Assembly (NCBI GenBank): GCA_024421095.1
Contig: JAHQYM010000003.1
Coordinates: 1 to 58,569 of the forward strand
From: Acidimicrobiia bacterium
GTDB lineage: Bacteria > Actinomycetota > Acidimicrobiia > Acidimicrobiales > Aldehydirespiratoraceae
Length of the DNA: 58,569 nucleotides
Reading direction: 5' to 3'
The notes under the pieces were generated by a model. The model was given only the letters and a program-made list of their open reading frames with translations. It did not search any database and was not told the DNA's origin. This document shows, in pieces, positions 16,227-58,569 of this stretch. Each line of letters begins with the position of its first letter. Within the stretch, counting starts at the first letter, position 1. The position numbers and the translations under genes were made by a program.

Positions 16227-19200
16227 TCATAGAAGTATCGAATCTGAGCCGAGCAGGTCACGAACCTCCGCTACCACACCGTTGGCGCGATCGACAGCGA
16301 ATTTGTTGTGCAAACGCAAAACACGTGCATCGCTTAGGTACAACTCGACTTGACATTTACCGGGATGCGCTTCAAGCACACTTTTTAGTTGGGCTAGTTT
16401 GTTTTTTTTGTGTTGCTGCAAATTGAGACGCACCCGCAACACCGGCACCTCAAGCTGTTCGTCGACCACTTCAATGTTCGTGGCAATCAGATTTGTGGTT
16501 TCTTCACCCCCACCGCCTCTACGTCCTCGCGCCGACCTGCCAGATTCTTTTCTACCTCGAACCAGAACGATGGCATCATTTTCTAGTTTGTCAGTGCATT
16601 CTTTCATTAACTTTGGAAACACTACGACTTCTATTGATCCTCCTAAATCTTCTAAATCAAAGGAAGCCATCAGTTCACCTTTGTTGGTAAAACGCCGGTT
16701 GAGGTTAGTTAGTGAACCACCGACAGTGAAGAACGCCTTGTCGGGTTGGTCATGGATGGCCGCTATCGAACAGTCGGTTTTACGGCGAATCTGCGCCTCG
16801 TAGCCTCTGAGCGGATGATCAGAAACATACAGCCCCAACATTTCACGTTCGTGAGCAAGTTTGGTTTTCTTGTCAAATTCGACTTCTGGTACCTCTGGCC
16901 GATCATCGAAGGTCGGTTCATCACTGGCACCTTCGAATAAAGACATCGCGCCCAAGTCTTGTTCTTTGCGTCGTTCTACAGTCATCTCGGTGATGCGCTC
17001 ATGGACTTGGAGTAGGCCTTTACGGGGGTGACCGAGTGAGTCGAACGCACCACTCTTGATCAACGATTCGGTGGTGCGTTTGTTCAAAGAATCGAGGCTG
17101 ACCCGTTCAATGAAGTCGGTGAATGAAGTGTAGGGCCCGTTTTCTTCTCTTTCGGCGATGATCTTGGCCACGAAACCCACCCCGACATTACGTATGGCGG
17201 AGAGGCCAAAAACAATTCGCCCCAGGCTGGAGGCGTTTGGTTCTAAGTTTGGTTCTGGTGTAAAGTCCGATTCTGAACGATTGATGTCTGGCACGCCAAC
17301 GTCTACACCCATTATTCTGCACTCGTTCAAATAAACTGCCGCTGATTCTAGCTTATTTTTGACACTTGTTAGCAATGCTGATAGATATTCAACTGGATAA
17401 TTGGCTTTGAGGTACGCGATTTGATAAGCGATAAGACCATAACCATAGGAGTGGCTTTTGTTGAAAGCATAATCAGCGAAACTAGCTATGATTTCAAACA
17501 TCTCTTCGGCCAAAGACTTTTTGTAACCGTTCTGGACCACCCCATTCACAAATTTCTCTTGTTCTTTGGCCATGGCTTCACGAATCTTTTTGCCCATCGC
17601 TTTGCGTAGCGAATCTGCTTCAGCGAGCGTGTATCCCGCGAACTTTTGCGCCATCCGCATAACGCTTTCTTGGTAGATCATCAATCCGTAAGTGTCGTTG
17701 AGTATTTCTTGCGCGTCAGGATGGATGAATTCCACTTTGGCTCGACCATTTTTTCGGTCGGCGTAGTCGTTATGCATGTTGGCCGCCATCGGCCCGGGTC
17801 GGTATAGCGCAACTAGTGCCGCAACATCGTCTAGCGAGGTCGGGGCCAAGGAACGAATCAGAGCACGCATCGGGGTTGATTCGAGTTGGAACACACCAAT
17901 TGTGTCGCCCCGTTTCAGCAGGTTGAAGGTGGTTTCGTCTTCGAGGTTGATGGCATCTATATCAACCGTTTCTGAACGAGTCTTTTTGATCAGTTCGAGG
18001 CAGTCGGCGATGACGTCAAGGTTACGTAACCCTAGGAAGTCCATCTTCAAAAGGCCCAGGCTTTCCACGCTGTTCATCTCATATTGGGTGACGATAGGCG
18101 ATTCTTCGATGCTCTTTTTTGCTTCTGGTTTACGTTGTATGGGAAGATAGTCGGTGATTGGTTGATCGGTGATTACCACGGCTGCCGCATGCACGCTGTC
18201 TTGACGGCGCAAACCTTCAAGCCCTTTGGCAAGTTCCACAACTTTGGCGATGTCGGGGTCGTTGTCTACCAATTCTCGTAACTCGGAAGCGGCGCGGTAA
18301 CCCTCAATATATTTTGGGTCTTTTTCGAAACAGTATTTCAATGGCGTGGCTCGCCCCACCATTAGTGGCGGCATGGCCTTAGCGACTTTGTCACCTAAGC
18401 CGTAGGGATAACCCATCACTCGCGCGGCATCGCGCACCGCGGCGCGCGCTTTGATTTGTGAGAAAGTGATGATTTGAGCCACATTATCTCGCCCATAACG
18501 TTCGGCTGCGTAGCGGATTATTGCGTCACGGTGGCGGGTTTCAAAGTCCATGTCGATGTCGGGCATGGACACCCGAGAAGGATTGAGGAAACGCTCAAAA
18601 AGCAGGTCGTACTTGATTGGGTCTAGGTCGGTTATTTTGAGCGAGAAAGCAACCGCGCAGCCAGCCGCTGAACCTCGCCCAGGGCCAACTCTGTAACCAC
18701 TGTCTCGGGCAAATTTGATCAAGTCCCAAGTGATCAGGAAGTACGCGGAGAAACCCATGTTATCGATCACGTTGAGTTCATAGTCAAGCCGTTCGGTTAC
18801 ATCCCTACGTAAGGGTGCGCCCCAACGCTCCTTTGCACCTGCATAGGTGAGGGCGCGCAGGTATTCCGTGTCCGTATCGAACCCTTCAGGGAGAGGAAAT
18901 TTTGGAAGTTTAGGTTTACCGAATTCAATGTTGACATTTGCACGTTCAGCAATCCAGAGTGTGTTATCGCAGGCTTCAGGTGTGTCCTTAAATAGTTCTC
19001 GCATCTCTTGAGATGTCTTGAGATAGTGTTGGTCGCCATGGAATTTGAAGCGGTTGGTGTCGGAGAGAAGCGACCCGGTTTGTACGCAAAGCAGCGCATC
19101 ATGTGCTGGCGCGTCGGTGGAGTGCGTGTAATGACTGTCATTCGTGGCTAAAAGTGGCGCGTTCAGTTTGCGCGCTATCTCGATTAGTTGCGGGTTAGTC

Positions 19201-19790
19201 CGAGCTTGATCGGGGATACCATGATCTTGCAGTTCGATAAAGTAGTTGTCCCTACCGAAAATATCTTGAAAACGCGCGGCTTGTTCAAGGGCTAACTTTT
19301 CATTACCTTTCAGCAAAGATTGCAGCACATGACCACCTAAGCATCCGCAGGTAGCTATTATGCCTTCACTATATTTATCAAGCAGTTCAAAATCGGCACG
19401 TGGTTTGTAATGATATCCAGAAAGGAAAGCCTGACTCGATATTTGAATTAGGTTCTTGTATCCTACGTCGTTTTCAGCCAACAGAATCGCGTGGTAGTAG
19501 AGTTTTTTGCCAGATCCGGTGCTGCCACCCGAATCATCAGTGTTGCCACTGCGGTAGGGGCGTTCGTGACGTGATTCGTGCGCTAGGTAAACCTCGCTAC
19601 CAACAATAGGTTTGATGCCTTGCTCTTGGCAACCCTGATAGAATTCCAAGACTCCATACATGTTGCCGTGGTCGGTGATAGCCATTGCCGGTTGCTTGTC
19701 ACGGACTGCGGCACTAATGGCATCAGCGACCCGCGATGCCCCGTCAAGCATTGAATATTCGGTGTGGACATGTAAATGGGCGAAGGACAC
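16227..19790 (-). CDS. dnaE: DNA polymerase III alpha subunit
   Basis: 1187 aa. PHP domain N-terminus FAHLHVHTEYSMLDG, PDIDMDF palm motif, OB-fold C-terminus. Confidence 0.97.
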   Translation of the reverse strand: MSFAHLHVHTEYSMLDGASRVADAISAAVRDKQPAMAITDHGNMYGVLEFYQGCQEQGIKPIVGSEVYLAHESRHERPYRSGNTDDSGGSTGSGKKLYYHAILLAENDVGYKNLIQISSQAFLSGYHYKPRADFELLDKYSEGIIATCGCLGGHVLQSLLKGNEKLALEQAARFQDIFGRDNYFIELQDHGIPDQARTNPQLIEIARKLNAPLLATNDSHYTHSTDAPAHDALLCVQTGSLLSDTNRFKFHGDQHYLKTSQEMRELFKDTPEACDNTLWIAERANVNIEFGKPKLPKFPLPEGFDTDTEYLRALTYAGAKERWGAPLRRDVTERLDYELNVIDNMGFSAYFLITWDLIKFARDSGYRVGPGRGSAAGCAVAFSLKITDLDPIKYDLLFERFLNPSRVSMPDIDMDFETRHRDAIIRYAAERYGRDNVAQIITFSQIKARAAVRDAARVMGYPYGLGDKVAKAMPPLMVGRATPLKYCFEKDPKYIEGYRAASELRELVDNDPDIAKVVELAKGLEGLRRQDSVHAAAVVITDQPITDYLPIQRKPEAKKSIEESPIVTQYEMNSVESLGLLKMDFLGLRNLDVIADCLELIKKTRSETVDIDAINLEDETTFNLLKRGDTIGVFQLESTPMRALIRSLAPTSLDDVAALVALYRPGPMAANMHNDYADRKNGRAKVEFIHPDAQEILNDTYGLMIYQESVMRMAQKFAGYTLAEADSLRKAMGKKIREAMAKEQEKFVNGVVQNGYKKSLAEEMFEIIASFADYAFNKSHSYGYGLIAYQIAYLKANYPVEYLSALLTSVKNKLESAAVYLNECRIMGVDVGVPDINRSESDFTPEPNLEPNASSLGRIVFGLSAIRNVGVGFVAKIIAEREENGPYTSFTDFIERVSLDSLNKRTTESLIKSGAFDSLGHPRKGLLQVHERITEMTVERRKEQDLGAMSLFEGASDEPTFDDRPEVPEVEFDKKTKLAHEREMLGLYVSDHPLRGYEAQIRRKTDCSIAAIHDQPDKAFFTVGGSLTNLNRRFTNKGELMASFDLEDLGGSIEVVVFPKLMKECTDKLENDAIVLVRGRKESGRSARGRRGGGGEETTNLIATNIEVVDEQLEVPVLRVRLNLQQHKKNKLAQLKSVLEAHPGKCQVELYLSDARVLRLHNKFAVDRANGVVAEVRDLLGSDSILL

Positions 19791-53438: not shown

Positions 53439-54146
53439 TTATCCGAATCTGCTTCGGACAGCGAAATCCTGAGTTGTCCGCTCGGTGCGGCGTTCCAAAG
53501 CACCGACTAAACGTTCCGCCAACACCCTTTCCCCGATTCCGCAGAGTTGGTCGGCAAGTTCGGGGCGCGACTTCGCGAACACACCTGCCTTGCTCAGCGC
53601 TGCCCGACTCAGCGATGTCAGCATCGAAAGCTCCAAGTCCGCCGCAGCATCGGTGTCACCAATCTCGACTAGCTTCTCGTAGAGACCCTCAGCCCGCCGC
53701 GCGCGTGCGAGCGCATCAGACACCGACGGCAGCGAGAGCCGATCCTTCCACCCCGAACGAAGTGTCGTCCACCATTCGCAGCGTTCAAACAACACCCGCC
53801 CATAGCGCACGGTCCAAGACAGGTAGTCGTGACACGCGGCCAGATTCTGCAACACCTCGTCCCGTTCGTACAACCTCAGATCTACCGAGATCGGCTCGCG
53901 TGGAAGAACCGGCCGAGAACCTCGGTAAACCAGAACTAGGTCAAGATCGTCGCTGCGTTCGACATCGCGAACCGACGAACCGGTCGCCACAATCGCCTCC
54001 ACCGCCTCTTTTCTGCTTGAACTCGCAACGGCTTCATAGGTCCAGACGCGAGCTGCTTCGTCCGGCCACCTCCGCACGACATCCGCCAGATCCTCTACCT
54101 CCAACACTGTGCTAGACACTCGTTGCACAACCACTTGCTGACTCAT
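53439..54146 (-). CDS. minimal nucleotidyltransferase (MNT-like) fused to a helical, HEPN/KNTase-C-like domain
   Basis: NTase motif ATGSSVRDVERSDDLDLVLVY (G[GS]-x9-13-D-x-D). The C-terminal roughly 120 aa is all-helical. Confidence 0.65.
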   Translation of the reverse strand: MSQQVVVQRVSSTVLEVEDLADVVRRWPDEAARVWTYEAVASSSRKEAVEAIVATGSSVRDVERSDDLDLVLVYRGSRPVLPREPISVDLRLYERDEVLQNLAACHDYLSWTVRYGRVLFERCEWWTTLRSGWKDRLSLPSVSDALARARRAEGLYEKLVEIGDTDAAADLELSMLTSLSRAALSKAGVFAKSRPELADQLCGIGERVLAERLVGALERRTERTTQDFAVRSRFG

Positions 54147-54534
54147 AGCACAAGTTTCCCGATTCGTTCAACGTACGTCTCAATCTCCTCAGCGACCACC
54201 TCCGGATCAAGATTGTCGGGACGGTCGACATCGCCGTACGCTTCGTGCTTACGCATCGTGTTCAAATCTACGAGCAAGTTCTCAATCGCGGGCAAGCCAT
54301 ACTCGACGGCAAGATACCTAGACTCTTCCACCTTGCACCAGTGGTTCCTAGGACGTGGCCGTTTCAATTGAAGAGCCGCCGCCACAACGCAAGCTTCAAG
54401 GCAGTAAATCCAAACGTCGACAGTTCAAGCCAGTCGGTCGGGTCGTAAGCCGCAACAGCCACTCGCTCCAGATGATTCAACGCCAAGTTGAACGATTCCT
54501 CTGCTGTTTGTGCGATCGGATACCTCCACACCAA
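54143..54534 (-). pseudogene. HEPN-domain gene apparently split by one frameshift (or two small ORFs)
   Basis: The 5' part reads AQTAEESFNLALNHLERVAVAAYDPTDWLELSTFGFTALKLAL (about 54531-54390) and then hits a stop. The 3' part, one frame over, reads VAAALQLKRPRPRNH...LNTMRKHEAYGD...DPEVVAEEIETYVERIGKLV (54385-54143). Joined, they match the HEPN layout. The 3' ORF overlaps the NTase start by 4 nt. Confidence 0.5.
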
Positions 54535-54797: not shown

Positions 54798-56030
54798 TCA
54801 TGAATCCAAGGCTTCCGCCCAGCGATTCAAATGGTCTGTAGGAATTCTCAGGTGGGACGGTAGCCTATTCCTTAGATTATCACAGCGGGACGAATCAGCC
54901 CGAAGCGTGTCGCGCAAGTCTGGAAGACTTGCACTATTAGCGATTTCAATCTCCCATGCACGCGCCAACGCGAAATGTCTTTTGAGTTCATGATAGGTTA
55001 ATTCAGTCGGGAGTCGACCTCCTCTGCAAACACTACACTCGCACGCAAAGGCGGGATCTGCCTCCACTATGGCTGATGCCGTGGCTGTGGAAACGTATGC
55101 GTGCAGTTTTCTTACGTAGTAGCGAGCAGGAGCAGCTCCGGTCGAATCCAGAGTTGGCCATTCACGAGATTCACTATACCCAAGACCATTATTGAAGCCA
55201 GCGAGTCCGAACTTACCCAGCAATATACTAAAATACCCACCATAAAGATTGAACAAATCATATTCCTCGTTCAGATCAGCGACAACCGATCTTACCTGAA
55301 CAAGTGAATGCAACGATGCTTGCTTTTCATCGAAGCCTGGAATCCAAAAAAACACCTTAGATGAGAGAGTGCTTGGCACCTGTTCAATCGCTTCTCTAAG
55401 CAGTGACGGGTCGCTCATTGACACCACGGGTGAGATCACTCCTGGATCATCAAGTTGTGTTGCCGCATTCCAAGTCCTACCCACAACCTTCCACCATTTA
55501 TCAGAGAAGGAGCGAACTGCAAAGTACGGACAGAGAATGTAGCTAGGTTCACGCTTTTCGTCATTTCGCTCAGTCGTACCAGAATCACCAGTCGCCTCCG
55601 CTAGGAGTTTCCTATAGCGGTTCAATTTATCTGTGATCTGTGCAGATCTTCCACCATACTGTCTCTGGAAATCAACCATCGATGTAACCATTTCTCTGCA
55701 AACATCGTCAGAATAGAATTCTGGGGAGAAATATCTGCTGTTGCCGTCTACCACCTCACCACCTTTGTTTAGATGAGCATTAACTGTCTCGCCCATTTCG
55801 GCCGCTAACGTGTAGTGGGATGCTCTGGGTGCTTGCAGCATTTCTTGGAAGAGCGGTGTCCGTGGTTCAATCATGTAATCCAATTGGGAAGAAAGCACGA
55901 AAGCCGCAGTAGCATCAGAGTAATACGATGCGATCGTTGAAGGCACTGTCAAGATATCAAAGCACTGCCTCACCTCAAGATCACGAAAGCTCGCCTGGTC
56001 AGAATTTCCGTATGCGAGGAAATGTAGCAT
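54798..56030 (-). CDS. TGT/DpdA-like putative base-exchange (transglycosylase) TIM-barrel protein
   Basis: 410 aa with an alternating beta/alpha pattern. C-terminal CECSVCRGG...YHELKRH resembles the CxCxxCR...H zinc site of tRNA-guanine transglycosylases (E. coli CDCYTCR...HH). N-terminal FLAYGNSDQASF resembles the DS..D/DSGGFQ region. The assignment comes from motifs only. Confidence 0.45.
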   Translation of the reverse strand: MLHFLAYGNSDQASFRDLEVRQCFDILTVPSTIASYYSDATAAFVLSSQLDYMIEPRTPLFQEMLQAPRASHYTLAAEMGETVNAHLNKGGEVVDGNSRYFSPEFYSDDVCREMVTSMVDFQRQYGGRSAQITDKLNRYRKLLAEATGDSGTTERNDEKREPSYILCPYFAVRSFSDKWWKVVGRTWNAATQLDDPGVISPVVSMSDPSLLREAIEQVPSTLSSKVFFWIPGFDEKQASLHSLVQVRSVVADLNEEYDLFNLYGGYFSILLGKFGLAGFNNGLGYSESREWPTLDSTGAAPARYYVRKLHAYVSTATASAIVEADPAFACECSVCRGGRLPTELTYHELKRHFALARAWEIEIANSASLPDLRDTLRADSSRCDNLRNRLPSHLRIPTDHLNRWAEALDS

Positions 56031-56467
56031 TACCGCTCCATTCGACCGTTGTTTAGCAGCGAAAGTTCACCCATTTGAAGTTCACTTAGACGCTGACGAA
56101 GATGCTTTGACGGTTGCGCCGGACCTGCTTCCTGCACTATGTGCGTTGACCCGTTGTCAATAGCGATCACACCAATATCAAAGCGGGCAGCTTCGAAACG
56201 TCTTTCTTCGGTCACGCTCTTGGCTGGCAAAGCGACAAAAACAAGGTCCACACAATACCGGTGCAAATACGCTTGCGCTAAGAGCCGGTTCCAGTGCGAT
56301 AGTTTCACCTCAATGCCGATGAGTGTGGCCGGTGTTCGCACCAAGATATCCATTCTAGCTTGATCGTGGCACCGCACTTCTGTTTGGCTCGTTGCCTCTG
56401 CGCCCCAGAGATCTGAAACACGACTGCATAAATCCGACACCAGACAGGCTTCAGTCTTGTACTCCAT
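56030..56467 (-). CDS. PD-(D/E)xK-fold nuclease-like protein
   Basis: Core RMDILV...LIGIEVKLSHW..LLAQA (D...E-x-K). The ATG at 56467 follows an AGGAG that contains the upstream gene's TAG stop. Its own stop shares 1 nt with the next start (TAATG). Confidence 0.55.
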   Translation of the reverse strand: MEYKTEACLVSDLCSRVSDLWGAEATSQTEVRCHDQARMDILVRTPATLIGIEVKLSHWNRLLAQAYLHRYCVDLVFVALPAKSVTEERRFEAARFDIGVIAIDNGSTHIVQEAGPAQPSKHLRQRLSELQMGELSLLNNGRMER

Positions 56468-56475
56468 CGAAACTC

Positions 56476-57045
56476 CTACTTCCATGTTTCCTGTAATATT
56501 GACTGAAGGTGGCACTCTGATCTCCACCTTGAGAACGCCGAAAATGCGAAGACCACTCCTGAAGCTGCGGCAACCAAGAGTGCCACCAGACTGAAATAGC
56601 CGTATTCGATTGGCTCATCCCTCAACCAATCAGCCAAAGGAAGTAACGCACCTATCAATGCTAGCGACCCGATGATCGACGAGATCGTTTGGACAGCTCG
56701 GGCACGTAAGAGCTTCTGAGGATACACCTGCAATTCAAGTAATGCACAAAAAAGGGTTGATAGAGCTTGCACGACATGTGGATTATCGAATATCAACGCT
56801 AACTCCCGTCTGAGTCTTTCTTCATCACTGAGACTGATGTAGATTCTCCTAGTCGGTAATAAGTTAGTTACCAACGAATCTAATATCTGAGACCGAATTG
56901 CGACTCGAAGTTTCTGGAGCCTCTCATTCTGAGAGAGTCTAGCTTGTTCAGCTTCTCGCCTATGCTTACGCCAAAGAAGAATAGTTGAGACAACCGTGCA
57001 GGCTGAAGCGACGAAAAAATATCCAATCTGTGCTTCGTTTGACAT
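56476..57045 (-). CDS. 3-TM membrane protein, hypothetical
   Basis: TM1 IGYFFVASACTVVSTILLW, a roughly 90-aa helical loop, TM2 VQTISSIIGSLALIGALLPL, TM3 YFSLVALLVAAASGVVFAFSAF. ATG at 57045 is preferred (ORF open to 57132). Confidence 0.55.
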   Translation of the reverse strand: MSNEAQIGYFFVASACTVVSTILLWRKHRREAEQARLSQNERLQKLRVAIRSQILDSLVTNLLPTRRIYISLSDEERLRRELALIFDNPHVVQALSTLFCALLELQVYPQKLLRARAVQTISSIIGSLALIGALLPLADWLRDEPIEYGYFSLVALLVAAASGVVFAFSAFSRWRSECHLQSILQETWK

Positions 57046-57064
57046 GTATGCACGTTCCAAAGGT

Positions 57065-57601
57065 TCAAGACTGCATGATCTTGTTGCGTATGATAGATTG
57101 CTCTGAATAGTCGGGATACTGACTATAGACATGAAATATCAAGTTCTGTAAGGTGAGCCCAGCATATTGATCTTTGATGCGCTTGATTTCCTCTTGAACC
57201 AGCGGATGTGATTTGGCCAAGTACTCCGCGATTATCTTACCCTTCTCTGTTAGGAGGAATTGTCGTTCGTAAGAAATTTCCGTTGTCATATCAGAATAAA
57301 GGAGTTCTTCCGCTCTATCTAGATCTGAATCCGTGAATGCACGATCCTCTCGCACTAACTCGGCCTCTTCCAGCAATTCGACAGCCTCGTAGACCTCCCG
57401 CGAATAAGGACCATAATGATATGCAATAAAACCAAACGGTTCCCGGATCGCGGTGTTGTGCTCACATTCCTTGCCTATAAGGAAGAGCAGCTTCTCAAGC
57501 CTAGTTATCCCATTGATGCGATCCACAGCTTTGCTCCACCGACTCGGAGCTGCTAGAAGCAACAGGATGAGGTCTGGGCCGATCAATTCTTCGGTGTCCA
57601 T
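57065..57601 (-). CDS. YwgA-like / Panacea(SocA, DUF4065)-like winged-helix protein
   Basis: INGITRLEKLLFL ... FGFIAYHYGPYSREVYEAVELLEEAELV parallels B. subtilis YwgA (GRKKFQKMIYI ... FHFFGPYSEEL). A strong SD (GAAGGAG) precedes the ATG. Confidence 0.55.
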   Translation of the reverse strand: MDTEELIGPDLILLLLAAPSRWSKAVDRINGITRLEKLLFLIGKECEHNTAIREPFGFIAYHYGPYSREVYEAVELLEEAELVREDRAFTDSDLDRAEELLYSDMTTEISYERQFLLTEKGKIIAEYLAKSHPLVQEEIKRIKDQYAGLTLQNLIFHVYSQYPDYSEQSIIRNKIMQS

Positions 57602-58102
57602 TGAGCACTCCTTCTGTGTGGGTTGTTACCGTCGCGAGCGATGGGCTCCCAACTTTGGGCACGATGCCGAGTGTACCAGCGAGACGAGGTCGGCGATTCT
57701 CCAGAGTAGCTCTGCCGTACGACATCAGAGCCCGTGGTGACCGCCGACCTCTCCACCATGCACGGACTCAATACCTCTCTGATCGGTCATCGTCCCTGGA
57801 CGAATGATCACAAACCGAGGTCTTCGTGACTTAACTATGCACACCTATCTCGGGTCAGAAGTGGAGCAGTCCACGTCTGTTGTCACCACGGTGGCCCCAC
57901 CGATGGCAGCGTAAACCTCCAAGTTGGCCTTCTTGCCGCTTCGGTTAGGGCGGCTTGGAGGGGTCGGCGACCTCACCGACGTTCTACCAGCTGCTAGAGC
58001 CTACAAGGAAGGCAACCTCAGCCTTGAAGAACTGAAAAAATCATCCGCGCCTACCTCATCGGCTAGCCGTCCCACGACGGGAGTTGCTGCGTAGCTTGGC
58101 GG

Positions 58103-58569
58103 CTATGGGCTGCGGTAGTCGAGCAGTGACGAGCGTCCTTCGACGGCTACCACGGTGACCATCAGGACCTGTCCGTTCAAATCTTGGAGCCGAAGCTGCT
58201 CAGCGCCCGGGACGAAACGCGTCGGCTGCGGCAGGCCATCGTTGATCGCAACATTGTCTGCGTACATATAGTTGCGGTCGTGGGTGTCGCGAATGGGATT
58301 CAACCGGCCCACCAGACCCGGCAAAGTCCCGGTCGATTCCGCGAACACCACCGACCCACCGTCTGGTGCTTCAGTCAACTCCACGGCCAGCGACCGTTGC
58401 GCCGGCACCCAGCCGCGCTCAACATGGGCAGCGTAACCCTCACACGCCACGAACACGGTCATCGGAAGCTCAGCCGAATACAACTCCAGCAGCGCTTCTC
58501 CGTGCGCATCGGTCGCGGCACGCTTCCAAGTCTTGTTCGGGAACAGCGCCAGCACCGTCACCCCCTCCA
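58103..58569 (-). CDS. hypothetical protein, 5'-truncated by the window edge
   Basis: The frame stays open to the last base of the window. GC-rich like the core genome. The beta-rich sequence (TVFVACEGYAAHVERGW) gives no family assignment. Confidence 0.5.
   Translation of the reverse strand, partial: EGVTVLALFPNKTWKRAATDAHGEALLELYSAELPMTVFVACEGYAAHVERGWVPAQRSLAVELTEAPDGGSVVFAESTGTLPGLVGRLNPIRDTHDRNYMYADNVAINDGLPQPTRFVPGAEQLRLQDLNGQVLMVTVVAVEGRSSLLDYRSP

Follow-up and report, generated by a model that had tools for sequence, protein, structure and literature searches.

We investigated a 58,569-nucleotide stretch of DNA from an Acidimicrobiia bacterium (assembly GCA_024421095.1, contig JAHQYM010000003.1, positions 1 to 58,569; the whole stretch is called the window below) and found on its minus strand, at positions 54798-57601, a cassette of four genes whose order, g1-[slot 2]-g3-g4, is kept in 63 of the 66 loci that could be evaluated, across at least six phyla. 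The cassette encodes a Panacea (DUF4065/SocA)-like protein of 178 amino acids (g1, 57065-57601), a protein of 189 amino acids with three transmembrane helices that occupies slot 2 (g2, 56476-57045), a stand-alone PD-(D/E)xK nuclease fold of 145 amino acids (g3, 56030-56467), and a 410-amino-acid TIM barrel with a C-terminal CxCxxC...H motif (g4, 54798-56030). With a probability of roughly 0.55, we take it to be one copy of a widespread, mobile, and unnamed four-gene conflict module that works in the manner of an abortive-infection or toxin-antitoxin (TA) system. An earlier reading made from the letters of the DNA alone, here called the sequence-only reading, had proposed that the four minus-strand genes form one operon-like unit and had made their co-occurrence in other genomes a test; the open reading frames (ORFs) and their packing bear out the former, and the conserved order across phyla shows the latter.

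To judge from conserved homologues standing in the same order elsewhere, the four ORFs are real genes. Direct reading of the sequence placed a GAAGGAG Shine-Dalgarno sequence 7 nt upstream of the g1 ATG, a gap of 19 nt between the TGA of g1 and the ATG of g2, the TAG stop of g2 within a GTAGGAG directly 5′ of the g3 ATG, and a TAATG in which the g3 stop and the g4 start overlap, so that all four junction features described by the sequence-only reading were found. The start of g2 was assigned to the ATG at 57045, which matches the N termini of homologues and makes a longer start at 57132 unlikely; for g3, the shorter start is likewise consistent with homologue N termini. In most other loci, too, the stops and starts within the cassette overlap or nearly touch.

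A profile search of 1.84 billion representatives with g4 returned 827 clusters (50% identity) at E ≤ 1e-3 and 663 at E ≤ 1e-10. The broad g4 alignment (A6) was too diverse for locus scans, and a subgroup alignment (A8) was therefore used for these. Among the loci gathered from genomes and look-ups (L001-L034), the order was kept in all but one of ~24 distinct evaluable loci, the sole exception being L012, a decayed copy with a g1 remnant and an N-terminally truncated g4. In a distant clade (~25% identity), both g1 and g3 were present in 40 of 42 evaluable metagenomic or viral loci. The hosts include Acidimicrobiia (among them several sponge-associated metagenome-assembled genomes), Opitutaceae, Dormibacteraeota, Pirellulales and Phycisphaerales (Planctomycetota), and Chloroflexota. 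A full cassette is also carried by the cultivable Mycobacteroides immunogenum (WP_131676281.1; L029/L030, CP016189.1 961142-974377), where it is flanked by a DUF2771 gene and a DNA-alkylation-repair gene, in the vicinity of moa/csp/rpf; the syntenic region of M. tuberculosis, around Rv0874c-Rv0876c, may merit comparison.

Slot 2 is the part of the cassette that changes. By hydropathy, g2 has three transmembrane helices (residues 7-25, 120-138, and 153-171), as the sequence-only reading had stated, laid out as an N-terminal helix, a helical soluble region of ~100 amino acids, and a C-terminal transmembrane hairpin. This topology recurs in most of the slot-2 proteins examined, despite identities of ~12-30%. 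Comparison of g2 with SLATT families gave E values of 0.011 for SLATT_1 and 0.039 for SLATT_2, which have curated cut-offs of 40-41 bits, and 3 of 16 g2 family members matched SLATT weakly, with a best E value of 0.003. Slot 2 is filled by a protein of the three-helix type in ~20 other loci and by a PIN-domain protein of 126-177 amino acids in L026 and ~20 metagenomic loci, about half of the distant loci. The slot-2 PIN proteins exceed the curated cut-off of either PF01850 or PF13470, so at least two PIN families have contributed to the slot. PIN proteins are classic TA toxins. A fixed Panacea-like gene directly upstream of a slot that holds a membrane protein in some loci and a PIN protein in others is the arrangement reported for PanA-PanT pairs (PMC8832971). 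Panacea antitoxins have been shown experimentally to neutralize many unrelated toxins, and among the PanT toxins that were validated are membrane disruptors whose transmembrane helices lie at the C terminus (PMC8832971, Kurata et al. 2022). The alternation in slot 2 thus points to the logic of a PanA-toxin system, of the TA or abortive-infection kind, and not to a modification/restriction pair; this TA or abortive logic came out better supported than the modification/restriction pair, which had been the first option of the sequence-only reading. By analogy, g1 and g2 would pair as antitoxin and toxin.

The assignment of g1 to the Panacea type, also made by the sequence-only reading, was upheld by several profile matches and a conserved motif. 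The PADLOC models matched by g1, which include a Panacea-type domain, were the PDC-M19A domain (1e-12), the C-terminal part of a type I S subunit (2e-8), and the C-terminal domain of DarG (6e-3); g1 also matched phrog_14939 (8e-9). Against the Pfam model PF13274 (SocA_Panacea), g1 scored 18.6 bits (E 0.004; curated cut-off 25.7), and 13 of 16 members of its family matched the same model, with a best E value of 1e-4 and all matches shown lying below the curated cut-off. A Gly-Pro pair (G64-P65) is invariant and is followed by Tyr or Phe, at the place of the Panacea 'GPV' signature that was reported to be critical for neutralization (PMC8832971). The protein is acidic (pI 4.8). Probably, g1 acts as the antitoxin of the slot-2 toxin or regulates it. 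The cassette differs from a PanA-PanT pair in having four genes, two of them further, strictly conserved enzymes (g3 and g4), and in that g1 reaches the Pfam model below cut-off. We note that the survey that described these pairs left out operons of more than three genes (PMC8832971).

The product of g3 is a PD-(D/E)xK fold, as had been predicted from the letters. Its AlphaFold2 model (predicted local distance difference test [pLDDT], 91) has the topology H-E-E-E-H-E, and the top Foldseek match is 3dnx, a DUF1052 protein (E 1.5e-7, TM score 0.68), which has been assigned to the PD-(D/E)XK superfamily (PMC3424549). The next structural neighbors, SfsA, NucS/EndoMS, PaqCI, Hjc, and Can2, are all PD-(D/E)xK proteins. 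All 17 homologues compared, from several phyla, share D40, E53, K55, and Q65, and nearly all share E6. Taken with the model, these residues assign g3 to the PD-(D/E)xK superfamily with an intact catalytic motif. In fold, in the E...D...ExK...Q arrangement, and in being small and stand-alone, g3 is like DUF1052 (PF06319), SfsA, NucS/EndoMS, and Hjc; unlike DUF1052, it has no sequence-level match to PF06319 and it stands in a different gene neighborhood, DUF1052 having been reported beside HisKA and beta-lactamase genes (PMC3424549).

The largest component, g4, belongs to a family that has so far gone without a name: more than 227 full-length relatives were found in a 90%-clustered database, every one of them unnamed or annotated as "hypothetical." The protein had no match in Pfam, NCBIfam, PADLOC, or PHROGs; in Pfam, the same held for 42 close and 10 distant relatives, and none of 77 diverse relatives matched any PADLOC model. 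Its AlphaFold2 model (pLDDT 90, predicted TM score 0.90) shows a TIM barrel that contains a long helical insertion of ~80 residues (~70-147) and a beta-hairpin at residues 303-314, followed on the C-terminal side by a zinc-type motif, C330-x-C332-x-x-C335...H352. Of 77 diverse representatives, 60 have the CxCxxC and the other 17 have lost it; Y305 and H352 are invariant, and many invariant polar residues are retained, as they would be in an enzyme. The protein is acidic (pI 5.3, net charge about −12). Two longer "fusions" of g4, in L047 and L090, look like read-through or frameshift artefacts and were set aside.

The sequence-only reading had likened g4 to tRNA-guanine transglycosylases (TGT) and to the DNA-modifying DpdA, and a weak resemblance to these was seen at the level of the fold. 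The top Foldseek matches in the PDB were TGT (3bll) and QTRT1 (7ovs), with E values of 2e-3 to 5e-3 and probabilities of 0.96-1.0; the TM scores of the PDB matches were 0.34-0.48 (0.42-0.48 in four of five). The top named matches in BFVD were viral "queuine tRNA-ribosyltransferases," at E 1e-2 and weaker. Locally, the order of last strand, loop, hairpin, CxCxxC, and a helix carrying the His is that found in the E. coli Tgt sequence. No link was seen at the level of profiles, and all TM scores were at most 0.50. No match to TGT or DpdA was returned by hidden Markov model (HMM) searches of g4 against PDB sequences, and hhalign comparisons of g4 with E. coli Tgt, with a TGT profile of 9 sequences, and with a phage 9g DpdA profile of 16 sequences gave probabilities of 0.2-5%, the aligned part being confined to the zinc motif or to a short segment immediately preceding it; the DpdA profile is low in diversity (≥70% identity), which makes the comparison with DpdA a weak one. 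A sequence-level link to TGT or DpdA was thus rejected, as Pfam, the HMM searches against PDB sequences, and hhalign all lacked a significant match.

E. coli TGT uses a catalytic Asp pair, D89 and D264, and a base-binding Asp, D143. In g4, D55 is nearly invariant in the family (it is Glu in the window protein) and lies in the motif D55-P-x-T-x-x-F61-Q62, which perhaps corresponds to D89-S-G-G-F-Q of TGT, as GG264-265 perhaps does to the TGT 'GGL'; we regard these resemblances as leads only. No conserved Asp was seen before the hairpin, in the nucleophile region, which is occupied by N281 and E287. That g4 descends from the TGT superfamily we consider about as likely as not, and a base-exchange activity much less likely than that. 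Because the link to TGT lies in the fold, the profile comparisons stay below 6%, the catalytic Asp residues of TGT have no clear counterparts, and g4 is acidic, base exchange remains a guess, and the base-exchange enzyme of the sequence-only reading fared poorly, the likeness staying at the fold (E 2e-3 to 1e-2, TM scores 0.42-0.50). In its TIM barrel, its beta-hairpin, its CxCxxC...H, and the nuclease encoded nearby, g4 is like TGT and DpdA; unlike them, it has no PF01702 match, carries the ~80-residue insertion, is acidic, and has lost the zinc motif in some clades.

A canonical Dpd system was ruled out. The cassette has no DpdB, DpdC, preQ0 genes, or helicases; tblastn of FolE, QueC, QueD, QueE, DpdA, Tgt, and QueA against the window returned noise only, and no preQ0 or Dpd partner genes were seen in ~10 annotated neighborhoods. 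Since these partner genes are lacking, the cassette is not a Dpd system, and the sequence-only reading was correct that the window holds neither preQ0 nor dpd genes. It was also correct in recognizing no named defense system, none being matched in PADLOC, Pfam, or NCBIfam. In PADLOC-DB v2, g2 and g4 had no match, and g1 and g3 matched different candidates at the level of domains: the PDC-M19 protein matched by g1 is longer (294 amino acids), and PDC-S26, of which g3 matches the nuclease motif region (3e-4), has model proteins of 351-394 amino acids. No description of the cassette was found in the literature searched, the coverage of which is incomplete, so that novelty is not proven.

The cassette is mobile and patchily distributed across hosts. 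Close relatives carry it at differing chromosomal sites. In L011 (4605-9576) and L022 (8447-10001), insertion sequence (IS)/transposase insertions split the cassette at the g2-g3 or the g3-g4 junction; together with the decayed copy in L012, these interrupted copies indicate that the cassette is dispensable and turns over. A phage-borne element was rejected as an explanation, since a search of IMG/VR gave no match with alignment A1 and one weak variant with A8. In this variant (L115, 5861-9125), g3-g4 are preceded not by g1-g2 but by a 290-amino-acid protein, weakly similar to nucleoside 2-deoxyribosyltransferase (NDT), and a 95-amino-acid transmembrane protein. At the cassette in the window, we found no tRNA, no convincing flanking repeats, and no Rfam element as signatures of integration.

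The sequence-only reading had argued for horizontal acquisition from composition. The cassette is indeed AT-rich: its GC content is 48.0%, against 54.4% for the window (standard deviation 1.9% among blocks of the same size), the lowest of all such blocks, and its third-position GC content (GC3) is 0.474, against 0.554 for the background, with a mean of 0.557 and a minimum of 0.494 among background ORFs. Significant enrichment was found for the codons AGG (3.6-fold, P = 8e-4), AGA (4.9-fold), and TAT (3-fold); ATA and TTA were enriched weakly and non-significantly and CTA not at all, so that of the codons previously called frequent AGG stood, ATA and TTA were marginal, and CTA fell away. The core gene dnaE (DNA polymerase III alpha; 16227-19790, minus strand), with 49.5-51% GC (48.5-51.6% per 1-kb window) and a GC3 of 0.51, is nearly as AT-rich. 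Low GC here is thus not specific to acquired DNA, and by itself composition argues only weakly for horizontal transfer; the differing genomic contexts in relatives are stronger evidence.

We also inspected ~10 genomic contexts by eye. Neighbors of the restriction-modification, defense, or TA kind were HsdM, a 2059-amino-acid AAA_16 protein, and Phd/PIN in one context and a DUF1156 methylase in another; other contexts held PLD-SNF2 with N6_Mtase; SNF2, a methyltransferase, and DUF499; GIY-YIG, PIN-MazE, and a GHKL ATPase; or GmrSD_N-HNH and DUF6119. Integrases, IS elements, and a group II intron reverse transcriptase formed a mobile-gene context. An ASCH (PUA-like) gene lies 13 nt 3′ of g4 in one clade (L026, 3807-4250; L027, 1386-1829), and a GmrSD_N-HNH type IV-like nuclease gene lies directly 3′ of g4 in L036 (7293-8663). 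These two neighbors, each a single case, hint at modified nucleic acids; no conserved downstream partner of g4 was found.

From these data, we rate the cassette as a putative toxin system under Panacea control, built around a novel enzymatic core. In such a system, g1 would be a Panacea-type antitoxin or adaptor that keeps the g2 product inactive, and g2 would occupy a toxin slot, held here by a three-helix membrane disruptor and in sister clades by a PIN RNase. The conserved and translationally coupled core, g3-g4, would combine a nuclease with a zinc-binding TIM-barrel enzyme and may act on or sense the nucleic acid of an invader or a nucleotide-derived molecule. Once g3-g4 were engaged or inhibited, the PanA brake would come off and the toxin would arrest or kill the cell. 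Several points weigh against this scheme. The sensor role of g3-g4 is pure inference, the match of g1 to the Pfam Panacea model is a weak one below cut-off, and g2 has no conserved residues and matches SLATT weakly. No slot-2 gene is present in L095, and L092 (4429-9345) runs from an ECF-type sigma factor through a g1 homologue, extended by ~90 amino acids at its N terminus, to an overlapping g4 homologue and then DUF6119, lacking both a slot-2 gene and g3; these variants show that the toxin is dispensable and that g1 may regulate g4 and not g2. The defense neighbors, judged by eye on ~10 contexts, are suggestive, and three contexts (L023, L029/L030, and L031) look housekeeping or uncharacterized. 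The near-absence of the family from viral contigs in IMG/VR we regard as neutral.

Several other explanations were weighed. An ordinary PanA-PanT pair (g1-g2) might simply travel with housekeeping, repair, or metabolic genes (g3-g4) that have no anti-phage role. Panacea-toxin pairs are common and promiscuous (PMC8832971), the M. immunogenum cassette sits in a conserved housekeeping neighborhood by a DNA-alkylation repair gene, and g3 resembles the DUF1052 and NucS families. We nevertheless think this unlikely: hosts as far apart as Actinomycetota and Planctomycetota share the gene order at ~25% identity, with stops and starts that overlap, g1 remains with the core even where another toxin type, or none, is found (L095 and L092), the distribution is patchy, and there are IS-interrupted or decayed copies. 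A still smaller chance is left to a type IV-like activity, in which g4 would be a glycosylase that excises unusual bases, such as 7-deazaguanines, from the DNA of an invader, g3 would cleave at the lesions, and PanA and the toxin would form an abortive layer. Glycosylases of other folds are known to defend against 7-deazaguanine phages (bioRxiv 10.1101/2025.10.29.685425), the fold of g4 and the ASCH and GmrSD_N-HNH genes fit such a role, and the structural neighbors of g3 include the repair nucleases NucS/EndoMS as well as DUF1052. However, g4 is acidic, with nothing that points to DNA binding, its chemistry would be wholly inferred, and the suggestive neighbors are single cases with no conserved downstream partner.

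The same fold evidence would serve a modification-restriction system, in which a DpdA-like g4 swaps a base in host DNA, g3 cuts unmodified DNA, and g1-g2 provide addiction or backup. TGT and DpdA-type proteins are the top neighbors of g4 in the PDB and BFVD, the CxCxxC...H follows a beta-hairpin as in TGT and is exactly the motif that hhalign aligns, the D55...F61-Q62 and GG264-265 motifs offer their leads, and the g3 nuclease is intact and translationally coupled to g4. We hold this to be quite improbable all the same, since g4 has no profile similarity to TGT or DpdA, shows no Asp at the nucleophile position, has lost the zinc motif in 17 of 77 representatives, and carries a net charge of about −12; preQ0 genes, DpdB, and DpdC are absent from the window and were not seen in the ~10 neighborhoods, and g3 has no specificity domain. 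Very improbable, in our estimate, is a system in which g4 is the main effector and alters a small molecule or a protein, for example at the N-glycosidic bond of a nucleotide or cofactor, with PanA as a check on it and slot 2 and g3 as auxiliaries. The arrangement in L092, where an extended g1 overlaps g4 downstream of an ECF sigma factor, would fit this, as would the acidity of g4, which is unlike that of a DNA binder, and in type IV cyclic oligonucleotide-based anti-phage signaling systems (CBASS), enzymes of the TGT family are reported to have taken on substrates other than nucleic acids (bioRxiv 10.1101/2025.04.06.647259). However, the two-gene form was seen once only, g3 is nearly always present and coupled to g4, and there is no clue to a substrate. 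We see a real but minor chance that g3-g4 are themselves a new immune enzyme pair, in which a TGT-derived g4 would cleave or exchange an N-glycosidic bond of the invader and hand the product to g3, with the PanA-gated, swappable toxin (three-helix or PIN) as an abortive backup. If true, this would be a new defense family with a new enzyme activity, the substrate being DNA, RNA, or a nucleotide, or modified phage DNA.

The region 5′ of the cassette (57602-57860, minus strand) is its leader or promoter region, with blocks that are kept in close relatives. In a DNA alignment, conserved blocks over ~250 nt upstream of g1 were shared by the window, L001, L003, L006, and L007, although the genes further upstream differ among them. 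A possible ORF of 62 amino acids (57583-57771, minus strand) overlaps the g1 start by 19 nt, and its counterpart in L001 is annotated as an 87-amino-acid gene; a role as a small upstream ORF or as a regulatory leader is conceivable. The leader had no Rfam match, and a promoter and terminator scan gave no convincing sigma-70-like promoter and nothing that exceeded shuffled expectation. In the window, the cassette is flanked on one side by a nucleotidyltransferase-like pair and then a histidine kinase/lipoprotein pair, and on the other by an ORF of 152 amino acids (58103-58561, minus strand), which has a very high GC3 (0.74) and no family match. The pair directly downstream of g4 consists of overlapping minus-strand genes for proteins of 80 (54143-54385) and 235 (53439-54146) amino acids and may be another TA- or defense-type pair; with a GC content at or above background, it lies outside the AT-rich block. 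The 235-amino-acid protein carries the minimal nucleotidyltransferase signature GS...DLDLV (Pfam NTP_transf_2, E 0.11) and had no match in a search of solved structures.

If functional as proposed, the cassette would add a widespread candidate immune or TA system, with 827 clusters in at least six phyla, and would extend Panacea-type control to a multi-enzyme operon. Its largest component represents an enzyme family that is absent from Pfam, NCBIfam, PADLOC, and PHROGs, and its slot 2 provides a natural example of the swapping of a toxin position, between a membrane protein and a PIN protein, around a fixed enzymatic core. If g4 descends from TGT, it would mark a further recruitment of the TGT fold into biological conflict, after DpdA and Cap10 of CBASS. 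The hypothesis is directly testable because a full copy is present in the cultivable M. immunogenum, and we consider the cassette, with its predicted defense role, a good and worthwhile candidate for experiment.

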